From Escherichia phage T4, in the sequence record OZ209023.1: a stretch of 64,000 nucleotides of DNA. One strand, 5' to 3'. The position numbers were made by a program, and so were the translations under genes. Below the pieces are notes generated by a model. That model was not told the origin of the DNA. It did not search any database and saw only the letters and a program-made list of their open reading frames with translations. Shown here one piece after another: positions 3,419-56,808 of this stretch. Position 1 is the first letter of the stretch; every line of letters begins with the position of its first letter.

Positions 3419-4434
3419 TGTGTTGCCTCTACATATAGCTGATTTGCATATTGAATAAGTGCTTCACGGTCAGAATCAGTGATGTCTGGAATTGCATTAA
3501 TATACTCTTCCATTAATGTCTGAAGCGATTGAACTTCAACTTCTTCACTGTCATCTGACTCGACAGAGTTATCAATCTTTGACACAACTCGTAATGAATG
3601 CACAACTTTTTCTAGTTCAGATTCGAACTTCGTCAGATTTTTGTCTACTTCAGTTACTATAACACGTACTGATAGATTTGTAAAATCTTTATAGTCAATT
3701 TTTCCTTTAAATGGATAATGAATTCTACGATGCCAGGTAGTATTGTTTGGAATAAATTCCGTTCGTTCTGTTTCTGTATCAAACATCCAGAACCCACGAG
3801 GGTCATTCTCGTCACCTGCGGTTAGTGTCCATGGTGTCCCAATATATCTGACGTTTGCAGCCTCAGAAATAGTATGGAAGTGACCAGACCACACTTCTTT
3901 ATAAGTCTTAAGGAAATCGGGTTCAAGACCATGAGATTTCATTCCTTTATAAAAATAAAATCCATTCAGTTCCCAGTGACCAACACAAAAAGAAGCAGAT
4001 GAAGTTTTGATATGCTCAAGAATTTCACCAGTATTTTCTTCGCACATCCAAGGAATCAAATCAATCAAACACCCGTCAAAATCTACTGTAGTAGGCTTAT
4101 CATACACTTTAACATTAGGATATTTAGCCAAAAGCTCAGTAGAAGCATTTGGATGCATTACATTTTTATAGTGGAGATCGTGATTTCCTACAATAGTGTG
4201 TAATGTAATTCCAGCATCATCAAGCGTTTGAACTATTTCACGGGCAAACTCCATAGTTTTATGTGTGATCGCTTTTCGCACATCAAAAATATCACCGTAT
4301 TGAATCCAGGTAGTAATTCCATTTTTCTTAGAATATTCTATCGCTTGCTTAATTCCATCAATTTGAATACCGCGAATCCACTCATCATCAGCTTTAACGC
4401 CTAAATGCCAATCACCTAAATTTAAAATTTTCAT
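3415..4434 (-). CDS. 47: Recombination endonuclease subunit gp47 (SbcD/Mre11-like phosphoesterase)
   Basis: 339-aa ORF; metallophosphoesterase motifs (GDWH, GNHD); length as T4 gp47. Confidence 0.9.
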   Translation of the reverse strand: MKILNLGDWHLGVKADDEWIRGIQIDGIKQAIEYSKKNGITTWIQYGDIFDVRKAITHKTMEFAREIVQTLDDAGITLHTIVGNHDLHYKNVMHPNASTELLAKYPNVKVYDKPTTVDFDGCLIDLIPWMCEENTGEILEHIKTSSASFCVGHWELNGFYFYKGMKSHGLEPDFLKTYKEVWSGHFHTISEAANVRYIGTPWTLTAGDENDPRGFWMFDTETERTEFIPNNTTWHRRIHYPFKGKIDYKDFTNLSVRVIVTEVDKNLTKFESELEKVVHSLRVVSKIDNSVESDDSEEVEVQSLQTLMEEYINAIPDITDSDREALIQYANQLYVEATQ

Positions 4435-4571
4435 ATATCAAGAACCGTCATTGAAATGCAAAATAAAATTATTGAAATAAATCCATCTGGAGTGCTAAAG
4501 AACCCAATCCAACATGCTCTAGTGAATAGATAAAATGCAAGAAAAAGTATCACATATCCAAGAAATATCAT
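4431..4571 (-). CDS. Small hydrophobic protein (T4 47.1 position), 46 aa
   Basis: ATG at 4569-4571; translation MIFLGYVILFLAFYLFTRACWIGFFSTPDGFISIILFCISMTVLDI; its TGA stop overlaps the gene 47 ATG (ATGA); below the 60-aa track cutoff. Confidence 0.5.
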   Translation of the reverse strand: MIFLGYVILFLAFYLFTRACWIGFFSTPDGFISIILFCISMTVLDI

Positions 4572-4595
4572 TATATCAAACTCCGTATAAAGCTA

Positions 4596-4611
4596 AAGGG
4601 CCGAAGCCCTT
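4596..4611 (-). terminator. GC-rich stem-loop with UUCG tetraloop overlapping the a-gt stop codon
   Basis: aagggc-cgaa-gccctt on plus strand; only a weak U-tract follows, so this may be an RNA-stability hairpin rather than a terminator. Confidence 0.4.
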
Positions 4612-4748
4612 TATTTTGTAATAATGTCAAACTGTTCTTTAAAGCAGAAGCTTGAATCTTGATGCTGATACAAAAATTCATATGCTTTTTCTCGCTCACG
4701 GTCATAAAGAGCTCGGTCAGCTCGAGCCATAAAAATGCAAATACGCAT
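4611..4748 (-). pseudogene. a-gt: alpha-glucosyltransferase (a-gt) internal in-frame deletion remnant, 43 codons
   Basis: ATG at 4746-4748 with GAGG Shine-Dalgarno; translation MRICIFMAR-ADRALYDREREKAYEFLYQHQDSSFCFKEQFDIITK joins what I recall as the T4 a-gt N-terminus and C-terminus; the ~1.1 kb middle is absent. Confidence 0.75.
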
Positions 4749-4806
4749 AGTTTTCCTCTTTTCATTTAATAAATCATGTAAATAATATTTTATTTTCTAT
4801 AAAACG

Positions 4807-5601
4807 CTACGAATAGGCCCAAACATATCCATAAGCAATTTTGCTTTTTCCAGATATGCACTTTTTAATATTAGACATGCATCCTTTAACGGATACAGCT
4901 GCGTCTTTAATTCTAGGAAATACTCGTAATAATTTTCCAGTAGTATCATATTGAAATACTGGCACATTTCTTTTCTGAGTTATCCCACGTTTAGATTTAG
5001 ACATTTTTTGTTTAGTTGCATTAGACATCCTAGAGGGCTTTCCTATGTTATCAGAATAATAATATTTCCATTGAAATCCTCCAGCGGTTTTCCTTTTACC
5101 ATCTACACATTGTTTAATTGAAGTTGAACAGCTATATGACATATCTTCTGCAGCATCTGTAATACATCTATATTTGCGAATAAAATTTCCATTTAAATCA
5201 TATTGATAAATTGGTTTTCCAGCATTTCGTCTAGCGTTAGACATGTATTTTTTATTATCATCATCTTTCCAGAACTCTTTCATGCTTTCCGATATTGAAG
5301 AAGATACAGCTGTTTTAATCCATCCATACATTTTATTATTTAGTCTTGTTCCGTCAGAACTATAACACATCATACGAATAGCTAAAGCCAATTTAGGAAG
5401 TCTATAAATTTTAAATAATAATAAATGCGCGGTAAAATGTTCTTCTGGTGTCAAAAGAACTAAATTAGTTTTATCATCTGTACCACCCATACATCTAGGA
5501 ATTATATGATGTGTTTCAGTATAGTATGTCAAAAGACTTTTATCATTGTCTCTGTTTAGTCCTTTTTCGATCAGTAAATTATATATGTTTAAATAATTCA
5601 T
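4807..5601 (-). CDS. HNH homing endonuclease (Mob family; likely T4 mobB)
   Basis: 264-aa ORF; HNH motif HHIIPRCMGGTDDKTNLVLLTPEEHFTAH; N-terminus MNYLNIY as in the two other HNH ORFs of this window. Confidence 0.8.
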   Translation of the reverse strand: MNYLNIYNLLIEKGLNRDNDKSLLTYYTETHHIIPRCMGGTDDKTNLVLLTPEEHFTAHLLLFKIYRLPKLALAIRMMCYSSDGTRLNNKMYGWIKTAVSSSISESMKEFWKDDDNKKYMSNARRNAGKPIYQYDLNGNFIRKYRCITDAAEDMSYSCSTSIKQCVDGKRKTAGGFQWKYYYSDNIGKPSRMSNATKQKMSKSKRGITQKRNVPVFQYDTTGKLLRVFPRIKDAAVSVKGCMSNIKKCISGKSKIAYGYVWAYS

Positions 5602-5652
5602 TTTAGTTTATTTTACCAAAAAATTTATAAAGCAATATAAGAGCCGAAGCTC

Positions 5653-5844
5653 CTATCCACATAATACGCCATACAGAGGCTCGTTAGAACTTTTAAATTT
5701 TATGCGCTTATATGTTATAGTTCCTTCTGCTTTAGCTTTATCATGAGCCTCTTTAAAGCGTCTCATCATTTCCTCTCTAGAGGAACGAATTTTATTATAA
5801 TCTATTTCAGAAGTCGGATGTTCATCTTTCACAGTTGCCACCAT
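5653..5844 (-). CDS. Hypothetical protein (a-gt.x position)
   Basis: 63-aa ORF in the co-directional gene array. Confidence 0.45.
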   Translation of the reverse strand: MVATVKDEHPTSEIDYNKIRSSREEMMRRFKEAHDKAKAEGTITYKRIKFKSSNEPLYGVLCG

Positions 5845-25710: not shown

Positions 25711-25736
25711 ATGAAAAAAGTCTCCCGAAGGAGACT
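25711..25736 (-). terminator. Intrinsic terminator (agtctcc-UUCG-ggagact then U6)
   Basis: Hairpin followed by UUUUUUCAUUUU on the minus strand. Confidence 0.7.
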
Positions 25737-25740
25737 AATG

Positions 25741-25962
25741 TTATTCGAGGGAAAGAAGATACTTACTCTGGTAAAACATTCCAGTAATATCATCTATCGT
25801 GCTTTGGATGGCTGGAGGCATTTCTTTATAAATGCTGTTAGATTGGTCTAGTATGCGATCAATCATTTTAATTGTGTCGGTAGGAAGTTTACTGGCATCT
25901 GGAATTGAAGGCGTGTATTTTCGACCAGAATACCCCAAATATTGCTCACCCAAATTTATCAA
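25741..25962 (-). CDS. Hypothetical protein (rI.-1 position)
   Basis: 73-aa ORF. Confidence 0.5.
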
Positions 25963-26128
25963 TCAAATCTGGCAACTCGGAAAAAATAAAATCGTATGCT
26001 TTGTGTCTAGCATAACTTTTAGTTTCAAAATGTGCAGAATGAAAATAAGCTTGTGCAGCCATTAATAAACCTAAGTATTCATCTGCCTTTGAAGGTTTTC
26101 CACTTTGTGAAAAGTCGCTGAATTTCAT
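25946..26128 (-). CDS. Hypothetical protein
   Basis: 60-aa ORF. Confidence 0.45.
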   Translation of the reverse strand: MKFSDFSQSGKPSKADEYLGLLMAAQAYFHSAHFETKSYARHKAYDFIFSELPDLIDKFG

Positions 26129-31853: not shown

Positions 31854-32270
31854 TTATGCATAAATCGCCTTACCGTAGTATTTGTACCAAGTAGGACGTT
31901 GTGCAATTTTTTCATCTAAACGAGCTTGTGATATAGCAATAGAAGCTTCATGGGGAATATAATCACCACGGAATTCCTGAGGAATATCACTAATATCCTG
32001 GACTGTAGTATCCTTGATATTAAAACCACGTTTTAAACATTCAGCTATAAGCTCAATTTGACGTTTACGTAAGAACTCGAGCTTATCGTAAAAGAATGTA
32101 ACATGACCTGCGCCAAGGATAAAAGTAGGACTGATTTTAAAATCACGAACACGTTTACCGTTAGCAACATGCTTACGAACTGCACCAAAAACACGCGGCA
32201 ATTCACGATATTCAGCCATTAAGTGTTGGTCAGCCAATTCAGATACTAAAGTAAGGTTGATACGAGTCAT
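31854..32270 (-). CDS. denV: Endonuclease V (pyrimidine-dimer DNA glycosylase) DenV
   Basis: 138 aa; [34 protein letters not shown]... as T4 DenV. Confidence 0.9.
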
Positions 32271-36226: not shown

Positions 36227-36820
36227 TTATTTCAGAGAATTAATATATTCCTGAACATCGGCAGAGGTAGTTTCAACCCCAGAAATATTACCATTAAAGG
36301 TTTCAACTCGAGCAAGAGTATCTTCAATATCAACCTTAGTCAGTGCTGCAATTTCAACTACATCATCAGCAGTACTAATTCCAAGGGCATTTGCTGCACG
36401 AGTTTCACGGATATATTCCAATTTAACTGCAAGTTCTTGGCGAGCATCATCTAACTCAACTACTTTCTTGGCGATTTCAATTCGCATTTCAGCATAACCA
36501 TCAGCTTTAGTAGTCAGCTGTTCAGCTGTTCGACGATATAGCAAGCCGAGTTTAGCATGCATTGTTACATCTTGACCTTCGGAAAGAAGCTTGCGAATTT
36601 CACGCTCTTTTGATTCGGCCTGTTTATTCTTTTCAACAATAAGTTCACGAATACGTTTTTCTTCATTAATAGATTTAACAGAAGCAGTTTTTAGGTCTTT
36701 AATTTTATCAAGTAGTTTTGCTGCTGCAGCAGTATACTGTTCTTCAACAGATAGATTTTTAGCCATTGCAGAACCAAGTTTAGTGCGAATAAACTCAACA
36801 ATTTTCTTCAGTGTGTTCAT
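36227..36820 (-). CDS. Coiled-coil protein, PspA/IM30-like in composition (e.x position)
   Basis: 197 aa, predominantly helical and charged. Confidence 0.5.
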
Positions 36821-37773: not shown

Positions 37774-37823
37774 AGCCTTGCGGCAACCTTGTCGGGGTTC
37801 CACCTGCCAAGGCAAGTGTTTGT

Positions 37824-49978: not shown

Positions 49979-52900
49979 CAGTAAAAGCACCTTCAGTCAC
50001 TAGTCTCAGAATTTCCAAGTTATCCGCAAATCAGGTGCAAGTACGCTGGGATGACGTTGGTGCTAATTTCTACTATTTTGTAGAAATCGCTGAGACAAAA
50101 ACAAACTCGGGGGAAAATCTCCCGAGTAATCAATATCGTTGGATTAATTTAGGATATACAGCAAATAATAGTTTCTTTTTTGATGATGCTGATCCATTAA
50201 CAACATACATTATTAGAGTAGCCACAGCTGCGCAAGATTTTGAGCAGTCTGATTGGATTTATACCGAAGAGTTTGAAACTTTTGCTACAAATGCTTATAC
50301 ATTTCAAAACATGATTGAAATGCAATTAGCCAATAAATTCATTCAGGAAAAATTTACTCTTAATAATTCTGATTATGTTAATTTTAATAATGATACTATA
50401 ATGGCTGCATTGATGAATGAATCATTCCAATTCAGCCCATCGTATGTTGATGTTTCATCAATAAGTAATTTTATTATTGGTGAAAATGAGTATCATGAAA
50501 TACAAGGTTCTATTCAGCAAGTATGTAAGGATATTAACCGAGTTTATTTGATGGAATCAGAAGGAATTCTATATCTTTTTGAGCGCTATCAACCTGTAGT
50601 TAAAGTATCCAATGATAAAGGACAAACCTGGAAAGCTGTAAAGCTCTTCAATGACCGTGTAGGATATCCTTTATCTAAGACAGTATATTACCAATCTGCG
50701 AACACAACATACGTTCTAGGATACGACAAGATTTTCTATGGCCGCAAATCTACTGATGTTAGATGGTCAGCCGATGATGTCAGATTTAGTTCTCAGGATA
50801 TAACATTTGCTAAACTTGGCGACCAATTACATCTAGGATTTGATGTAGAAATTTTTGCCACTTACGCGACTTTACCAGCGAATGTATACCGCATTGCAGA
50901 AGCTATTACTTGCACCGATGATTACATTTACGTTGTCGCCAGAGACAAAGTTAGATACATAAAAACGAGTAATGCACCTATAGATTCTGATCCATTATCT
51001 CCAACATATTCGGAAAGACTTTTTGAACCTGATACCATGACTATAACCGGAAATCCTAAAGCAGTATGCTATAAAATGGATTCTATCTGTGATAAAGTTT
51101 TTGCTCTTATTATTGGTGAAGTTGAAACATTAAATGCTAATCCTAGAACATCAAAAATAATTGATTCCGCTGATAAAGGAATATATGTTTTAAATCATGA
51201 CGAAAAAACATGGAAAAGAGTTTTTGGTAATACCGAAGAAGAAAGAAGACGTATTCAACCCGGATATGCGAATATGTCAACTGACGGTAAATTAGTTTCT
51301 CTGTCTTCGAGTAATTTTAAATTTTTAAGTGATAATGTTGTTAATGACCCTGAAACTGCAGCAAAATATCAGTTAATTGGCGCTGTTAAATATGAATTTC
51401 CTCGTGAATGGTTAGCTGATAAGCATTATCATATGATGGCATTTATAGCGGATGAAACATCTGATTGGGAGACTTTTACTCCTCAACCAATGAAATACTA
51501 CGCAGAACCATTCTTTAACTGGTCTAAAAAATCTAACACACGTTGTTGGATAAACAACTCTGATAGAGCTGTGGTAGTTTATGCTGATTTAAAATACACT
51601 AAAGTTATAGAAAATATTCCGGAAACATCACCAGATAGATTAGTTCATGAATACTGGGATGATGGTGATTGCACTATAGTAATGCCAAATGTCAAATTCA
51701 CTGGATTTAAAAAATACGCATCAGGAATGCTTTTCTATAAAGCCTCCGGTGAAATAATTTCTTACTATGATTTTAACTATCGTGTGAGAGATACAGTAGA
51801 AATTATTTGGAAGCCAACTGAAGTATTTTTAAAAGCATTTTTACAAAACCAAGAGCATGAGACTCCTTGGTCACCAGAAGAAGAGCGTGGATTAGCTGAC
51901 CCTGATTTAAGACCATTAATTGGCACAATGATGCCTGATTCTTATTTGTTACAGGATTCGAATTTTGAGGCATTTTGCGAAGCATATATTCAGTATCTTT
52001 CTGATGGATATGGAACTCAATACAATAATTTACGAAATTTAATTCGTAACCAATATCCACGAGAAGAGCACGCATGGGAATATTTGTGGTCAGAGATATA
52101 TAAAAGAAACATTTATTTAAATGCTGATAAACGCGATGCTGTTGCGAGATTCTTTGAATCACGTAGCTATGATTTTTATTCTACTAAAGGAATTGAAGCA
52201 TCATACAAGTTTCTTTTTAAAGTTCTTTATAATGAAGAAGTTGAAATTGAAATTGAATCTGGGGCTGGTACTGAATATGATATAATCGTTCAATCTGATT
52301 CTTTGACTGAAGATTTAGTAGGACAAACGATTTATACGGCAACAGGAAGATGTAATGTTACTTATATAGAAAGAAGCTATTCTAATGGTAAATTGCAATG
52401 GACCGTAACTATTCATAATCTTTTGGGACGATTAATTGCTGGTCAAGAAGTTAAAGCAGAAAGACTCCCTAGTTTTGAAGGCGAAATTATTCGTGGGGTT
52501 AAAGGAAAGGATTTGCTTCAAAACAATATAGACTATATTAATAGAAGTAGATCATACTATGTAATGAAAATTAAATCCAATTTACCTTCTTCCCGCTGGA
52601 AATCTGACGTTATTCGTTTTGTTCATCCAGTAGGATTTGGATTTATAGCAATTACCCTTTTAACAATGTTTATTAATGTTGGTTTAACTCTTAAACATAC
52701 AGAGACTATAATTAATAAATACAAAAACTATAAATGGGATTCTGGATTGCCTACTGAATATGCCGACAGAATAGCTAAATTAACTCCAACCGGTGAAATT
52801 GAGCATGATTCAGTAACAGGCGAAGCAATTTATGAGCCTGGCCCAATGGCTGGTGTAAAATATCCTCTTCCTGATGACTATAATGCTGAAAATAATAATT

Positions 52901-55000: not shown

Positions 55001-56808
55001 TGAAACAAAATATTAATATCGGTAATGTTGTAGATGATGGTACCGGTGACTACCTGCGTAAAGGTGGTATAAAAATAAATGAAAACTTTGATGAGCTTTA
55101 TTATGAACTCGGTGATGGTGATGTTCCATATTCAGCCGGTGCCTGGAAAACTTATAATGCTTCATCAGGACAAACATTAACAGCAGAATGGGGAAAATCA
55201 TACGCTATTAATACATCTTCTGGAAGAGTGACTATAAATCTTCCAAAGGGTACAGTTAATGATTACAACAAGGTAATTAGAGCTAGAGACGTATTTGCTA
55301 CATGGAACGTCAACCCAGTTACACTAGTAGCTGCTTCCGGCGATACGATTAAAGGGTCTGCAGTACCAGTTGAAATTAATGTTCAATTCAGCGATTTAGA
55401 ACTAGTGTATTGTGCCCCAGGACGTTGGGAATATGTCAAAAATAAACAAATTGACAAAATTACCAGTTCAGACATTAGTAATGTAGCTCGCAAAGAATTT
55501 TTAGTTGAAGTTCAAGGACAAACAGACTTTTTAGATGTTTTCCGTGGAACTAGTTATAATGTAAATAACATCAGAGTAAAACATCGTGGTAACGAATTGT
55601 ATTACGGCGATGTGTTTAGCGAAAACAGCGATTTTGGCTCTCCAGGCGAAAATGAAGGAGAACTGGTTCCTCTTGATGGATTTAACATTCGATTAAGACA
55701 GCCTTGTAATATTGGTGACACTGTTCAAATTGAAACATTTATGGATGGTGTATCACAGTGGAGAAGTTCATATACAAGACGTCAAATTAGATTGTTAGAT
55801 TCAAAATTAACGTCAAAAACTTCTTTAGAAGGAAGCATTTACGTTACTGATTTATCAACAATGAAATCAATTCCATTTTCTGCTTTTGGATTAATTCCAG
55901 GAGAACCTATTAATCCTAACTCTCTTGAGGTTCGTTTTAACGGGATTTTACAGGAATTGGCTGGCACAGTTGGAATGCCATTATTTCATTGTGTTGGTGC
56001 CGATTCAGACGATGAAGTAGAATGCTCTGTTTTAGGTGGAACTTGGGAACAATCTCATACCGATTATTCAGTTGAAACTGATGAAAACGGCATACCAGAA
56101 ATTTTACATTTCGATAGAGTATTTGAGCATGGTGACATTATCAATATCACCTGGTTTAATAATGATTTGGGTACATTATTAACAAAAGATGAGATTATTG
56201 ATGAAACTGATAATCTCTATGTATCGCAAGGACCTGGAGTAGATATTTCTGGTGATGTAAATTTAACAGACTTCGATAAAATTGGTTGGCCAAATGTAGA
56301 AGCAGTTCAATCTTATCAACGCGAATTTAATGCTGTTTCAAATATCTTTGATACGATTTATCCTATTGGAACTATATATGAAAACGCTGTTAATCCAAAT
56401 AACCCTGTTACATATATGGGATTCGGCTCATGGAAATTATTTGGGCAAGGAAAAGTTTTAGTTGGATGGAATGAAGATATTTCGGACCCTAACTTTGCTC
56501 TAAATAACAACGATTTAGATTCGGGTGGAAATCCTTCACATACCGCAGGTGGAACAGGTGGTTCTACTTCTGTTACATTGGAAAATGCTAATCTTCCTGC
56601 AACTGAAACAGATGAAGAAGTTCTAATAGTTGATGAAAATGGATCAGTCATTGTTGGTGGGTGTCAATACGATCCAGATGAATCCGGTCCAATTTACACT
56701 AAATACCGTGAAGCTAAAGCATCTACTAACTCTACTCACACTCCGCCAACATCAATAACTAACATTCAACCATATATTACAGTTTATCGTTGGATAAGGA
56801 TTGCATAA
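55000..56808 (+). CDS. 10: Baseplate protein gp10
   Basis: 602-aa ORF; TAATG overlap with gene 11. Confidence 0.9.

Follow-up and report, generated by a model that had tools for sequence, protein, structure and literature searches.

Between gene 47.1 (4431-4571) and the HNH homing endonuclease gene mobB (4807-5601), the window, by which we mean the whole 64,000-nucleotide stretch of DNA analysed, carries a short minus-strand open reading frame (4611..4748; 45 codons plus TAA) composed of a-gt codons 1-9, a hybrid alanine codon and a-gt codons 366-400. The window consists of phage T4 sequence from NC_000866.4 position 32014 onward, spanning about T4 32.0-97.1 kb, and the flanking genes gp47, 47.1 and mobB are arranged as in T4. 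The product of this remnant, delta-alpha-gt, is given in the ORF listing for the window as the 45-residue peptide MRICIFMARADRALYDREREKAYEFLYQHQDSSFCFKEQFDIITK. At the nucleotide level the remnant reproduces the two ends of the 1,203-nt T4 a-gt gene without change, 28 nt at the start and 110 nt at the end, with 9 native residues kept at the N-terminus and 35 at the C-terminus (D366-K400). Searched against PDB chains with phmmer, remnant residues 9-45 align with the C-terminus (365-401) of DNA alpha-glucosyltransferase, 1xv5_A (E 3.4e-20), and residues 1-9 with the N-terminus of the same chain. An initial annotation, made from the sequence alone, had described an in-frame a-gt remnant between 47.1 and an HNH gene, and both the location and the in-frame fusion of the gene ends are borne out; the 64-residue ORF in another frame that it had set aside as spurious is likewise present as a by-product, at 4571..4765. 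Its count of 43 codons was too low by two, and of the proposed fusion of the first nine to about the last 33 residues, the N-terminal figure is correct whereas the C-terminal part is really 35 residues long.

The deletion junction lies between 4720 and 4721. Exact-match extension against NC_000866.4 places the end of the left flank at window 4720 (record position 36733) and the start of the right flank at 4721 (record position 37799), both flanks being 100% identical to that record. The missing segment is therefore NC_000866.4 36734-37798, or a-gt nt 29-1093, which amounts to 1,065 bp (355 codons) removed in frame; the earlier estimate had been about 1.07 kb. At the breakpoint, ATGGCTCGAG|CTGACCGAGCT, the hybrid codon GCT (Ala) takes its G from Gly10 (GGT) and its CT from Ser365 (TCT). 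Alignment to the T4 reference, which the initial annotation had proposed as a means of defining the breakpoints, reveals no microhomology there, the left and right exact matches to NC_000866.4 abutting with zero overlap. When a 1.4-kb query round the site was compared with phage records, 12 T4-type records (10 of T4, together with T4T and RB59) matched at 100% identity, and in all 12 the match falls into two pieces spanning 2,466 bp. The hexamers CTCGAG (XhoI, 4721..4726) and GAGCTC (SacI, 4709..4714) that border the junction, and which had been suspected of being native, are both found in wild-type a-gt, at nt 23-28 and nt 1100-1105 respectively; neither site is a cloning scar.

The signals that surround the gene are retained, as had been claimed. 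The native Shine-Dalgarno sequence GAGG (4755..4758, minus strand) stands 6 nt upstream of the ATG, and the native hairpin (4594..4613, minus strand), which has an 8-bp stem and a UUCG loop, overlaps the TAA stop and has a predicted energy of -11.8 kcal/mol (z -2.95). With expression signals and hairpin both preserved, little disturbance of transcription and translation into 47.1 and gp47 is to be expected. Compared with wild-type T4 DNA alpha-glucosyltransferase (NP_049673.1; 1XV5; PF11440), the allele has the same locus, promoter region, Shine-Dalgarno sequence, start, stop and 3' hairpin, and residues 1-9 and 366-400 of the enzyme are unchanged in it, whilst residues 10-365 are missing. Full-length a-gt gives a PF11440 (AGT) match at residues 14-368 with 862.5 bits; the 45-residue remnant gives no PF11440 match, and only domain residues 366-368 are left in it. 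The deletion of residues 10-365 takes out essentially the whole catalytic AGT domain, and we infer that the 45-residue stump is inert and without function. It is very improbable that the stump is abundant as a micropeptide with partial alpha-GT activity, acting for example through gp45, the sliding clamp bound by alpha-GT in vitro; were this so, the 'clean' deletion would be slightly neomorphic, not null. Classical T4 alpha-gt amber mutants, which are carried together with b-gt amber mutations in the non-glucosylating 'gt' strains, have lost alpha-GT activity, and single alpha-gt mutants are still glucosylated through beta-GT. Those ambers are point nonsense mutations that can be suppressed or revert, whereas the allele in the window is a non-reverting deletion of 355 codons.

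A deletion of exactly this structure has been published. Bhoobalan-Chitty, Stouf and De Paepe (Front Genome Ed 2024; PMC11693715) report unmarked T4 deletions of a-gt and of b-gt obtained with the help of Cas13b, and the breseq call for their T4-delta-alpha-gt strain (Suppl. Fig. 5) reads position 36,721, delta 1,065 bp, coding (29-1093/1203 nt), agt. The deletion in the window equals this call in both size and coordinates and fits the retention of 28 nt and 110 nt; in MT984581 numbering the breakpoint falls after 36,720, in agreement with the published 36,721. The homology-arm oligos of that study also map to the locus. The upstream arm (oligo T4 alpha-gt_HA_rev) covers 4721..4803 on the minus strand, comprising the a-gt leader, the Shine-Dalgarno sequence and the first 28 nt of the gene, with the oligo continuing to 4710, and the downstream arm (T4 alpha-gt_HA_for) covers 4635..4720, also on the minus strand and inside the last 110 nt of a-gt, with the oligo continuing to 4730. 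The alignments of both oligos consequently cross the junction (HA_for at window 4632-4730, HA_rev at 4710-4803); HA_rev is exact across it and ends in ATGGCTCGAGCTGACCGAGCT, the junction sequence that the oligos carry. Comparison of the machine-read oligo text with the window gave five single-base indels, four of which lie in or beside A/T runs and the fifth next to the junction, in the overlap part of HA_for, at a place where HA_rev is exact; all five are probably errors of text extraction from the PDF.

The remaining reagents of the published study behave as expected of the same construct. The Cas13a and Cas13b protospacers in a-gt and the internal check primers all match wild-type T4, fall within the missing segment and have no match in the window, and the external check primers (T4 alpha-gt chk for/rev) flank the junction, at 4507 and 4808-4829, with a predicted amplicon (4507..4829) of 323 bp here versus 1,388 bp in wild-type T4. 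The authors confirmed their deletion with PCR, using the external as well as the internal primers, and with breseq, from missing-coverage and junction evidence (PMC11693715). This confirmation, together with the lack of any repeat at the a-gt breakpoints on which an assembler could collapse and a deletion that is exactly in frame, leaves a negligible probability that a full-length a-gt was merely collapsed in assembly.

Taking coordinates, oligos, protospacers and primers, and strain background (described below) together, all of which tie the window to PMC11693715, we conclude that the allele is of engineered origin and that the window almost certainly comes from T4-delta-alpha-gt (ENA OZ209023) or a direct derivative of it. 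The question of an engineered or a natural deletion, which the initial annotation had left undecided, is thus answered: the deletion is engineered, and published. No difference was detected between the window and T4-delta-alpha-gt as described, with which it shares the size and coordinates of the deletion, the junction, the homology arms, the protospacer positions and the private SNPs of the parental stock (PMC11693715).

According to the published procedure, the allele would have been made by fusing arms of about 80 bp from both ends of a-gt through overlap-extension PCR and cloning the fused arms in pBAD24 by circular polymerase extension cloning (PMC11693715). Growth of wild-type T4 on the strain carrying these arms would then allow homologous recombination to swap a-gt for the fused arms, with non-recombinants eliminated by BzCas13b programmed against a-gt mRNA. 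The result is an unmarked, in-frame deletion of 1,065 bp in which promoter region, Shine-Dalgarno sequence, start, stop and 3' hairpin are native and kept. We also considered an origin by restriction cloning, in which an XhoI-tailed arm would be joined to the native XhoI site, and rejected it on the grounds that both hexamers are native and that PMC11693715 employed overlap-extension PCR and circular polymerase extension cloning, not restriction ligation.

A spontaneous deletion by illegitimate recombination, whether natural or in an escaper under selection by, for instance, Cas13 or a Brig1-type defence, would have in its favour that a-gt is dispensable, that Brig1 selection readily gives a-gt loss-of-function mutants (PMC11078745) and that 'unattended' deletions of other sizes arose during Cas13b selection (PMC11693715). 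However, the Brig1 escapers were mostly frameshifts and not large deletions (PMC11078745), the spontaneous b-gt deletions show 9-nt microhomology (PMC11693715) as opposed to none at the a-gt junction, and the a-gt breakpoints coincide base for base with those of the published design, the junction being written into the oligos. Moreover, amongst the 483 phage records with matches to a 200-bp junction query, none covered at least 80% of it and none spans the a-gt junction. A spontaneous origin is accordingly scarcely credible. An exact-product look-up in the public assembly collection likewise returned no gene on record for the 45-residue product.

The strain background leads to the same construct. 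Genomes deposited according to PMC11693715 are OZ209023 (T4-delta-alpha-gt) and OZ209057 (T4-delta-beta-gt), and when the full 64,000 bases of the window are set against OZ209057.1, nothing but the a-gt deletion and a pair of SNPs separates them: position 26004 is T in the window and G in OZ209057.1, and position 51557 is A and G respectively. The two SNPs correspond exactly to the mutations published as unique to delta-beta-gt, namely H42P (a hypothetical protein) and N528S (gp7; PMC11693715). In the window, codon 42 of the ORF at 25946..26128 encodes His and has its middle base at 26004, where the window base is the same as in NC_000866.4 and MT984581.1. By its non-mutated alleles at 26004 and 51557 and by the shared lineage SNPs, the window is isogenic with the laboratory wild-type T4. 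Against MT984581.1 there are 8 differences (over about 32 kb), and window 4721-31915 differs from NC_000866.4 at 43 positions (over about 27 kb); beyond 32.4 kb of the window, position 51557 included, the comparison was with OZ209057.1 only.

The source genome might alternatively be a later derivative such as a double gt mutant, which has been generated by the same group (PMC13216743). The b-gt locus, at about T4 24.4 kb, lies upstream of the window start at 32014, so that single and double mutants look alike within the window, and the ancestral alleles at 26004 and 51557 would fit a double mutant derived from delta-alpha-gt. A delta-beta-gt parent for such a double mutant, on the other hand, is excluded because the H42P and N528S SNPs are absent, and the only deposited genomes named in the 2024 paper are the two single mutants (PMC11693715). 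We consider a double-mutant source unlikely, and the single mutant T4-delta-alpha-gt remains the preferred assignment.

The allele has been characterised in both glucosylation and restriction experiments. LC-MS/MS of T4-delta-alpha-gt found 99% of 5-hmC beta-glucosylated, beta-GT taking over from the missing enzyme; virulence on RM+ E. coli MG1655 equalled that of wild type, plating on McrA/McrBC hosts was unchanged, and McrA and McrBC restricted only the double gt mutant (PMC13216743). The predicted loss of alpha-glucosylation therefore stands, but the DNA is not under-glucosylated and plating on McrA/McrBC hosts does not change. The sensitivity that does change is that to defences recognising alpha-glucosyl-hmC: Brig1, an alpha-glucosyl-hmC glycosylase, is escaped by an independently made T4 delta-a-gt and by spontaneous a-gt mutants (PMC11078745), and the altered sensitivity anticipated in the initial annotation is supported to this extent. 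The independent strain, of Hossain et al. (Nature 2024; PMC11078745), likewise has an in-frame deletion of a-gt, for which a plasmid carried the template, and shows the same consequence, namely no alpha-glucosyl-hmC and escape from Brig1, although it differs in its laboratory stock, its pUT18C template and the use of Brig1 selection. The lineage SNPs seen in the window indicate the De Paepe stock and not that of Hossain et al.

The allele is thus an already published laboratory construct and not a discovery. The value of recognising it is one of provenance: features near 4.6-4.8 kb are not to be read as natural phage variation, and the window should be left out of any genome-scan statistics concerning 'gene loss in T4-like phages'. 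As a reagent the allele is useful, yielding T4 DNA that is about 99% beta-glucosylated, and its reported uses include the demonstrations that one glucosyltransferase of either kind is enough for protection from type IV restriction in E. coli and that the second glucosyltransferase matters when Brig1 is present. When the expression signals (promoter region and/or Shine-Dalgarno sequence) of the two glucosyltransferases were compared in a later study from the same group, those of a-gt, which the stump retains, were reported to be the stronger; the idea that the stump might be abundant as a micropeptide rests on this.

Several further differences serve to trace the T4 lineage. Two lineage SNPs lie just upstream of the edited locus, at 5549 and 5640, in mobB and in the mobB/a-gt.2 spacer, and the 301-bp interval that holds them (5450-5750) is 100% identical only to OZ209057.1 amongst 50,697 phage records. 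Because they lie outside the homology arms of about 85 bp, these SNPs are stock markers and not by-products of the edit, and are useful for following the lineage. Single-base differences from MT984581.1 at 7584, 9320, 24642 and 28207 are common to the window and OZ209057.1 and provide further lineage markers. The differences from NC_000866.4 include the loss of 9 bp from vs.8 (window 31722) and several 1-bp indels, and NC_000866.4 itself carries an N at 56143; most of the differences from this record are shared with MT984581.1 and are therefore reference errors or old-stock differences, not strain features.

The reading frame of rI.-1 is also altered, encoding 60 residues in the window (25946-26128, minus strand) versus 128 in NC_000866.4. 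Relative to both NC_000866.4 and MT984581.1, the window has one C more at 25949, immediately ahead of the new rI.-1 stop, and one A fewer at 25714. As both indels are present in OZ209057.1 too, the change seems to be characteristic of the T4 stock of the De Paepe laboratory and not a result of the a-gt edit. In the rI.-1 region, records KJ477684 and KJ477685 are one difference nearer to the window than are other T4 records. The only extra mutation reported for T4-delta-alpha-gt is T939I in gp37 (C to T at 159,371; PMC11693715), a position that falls outside the window.
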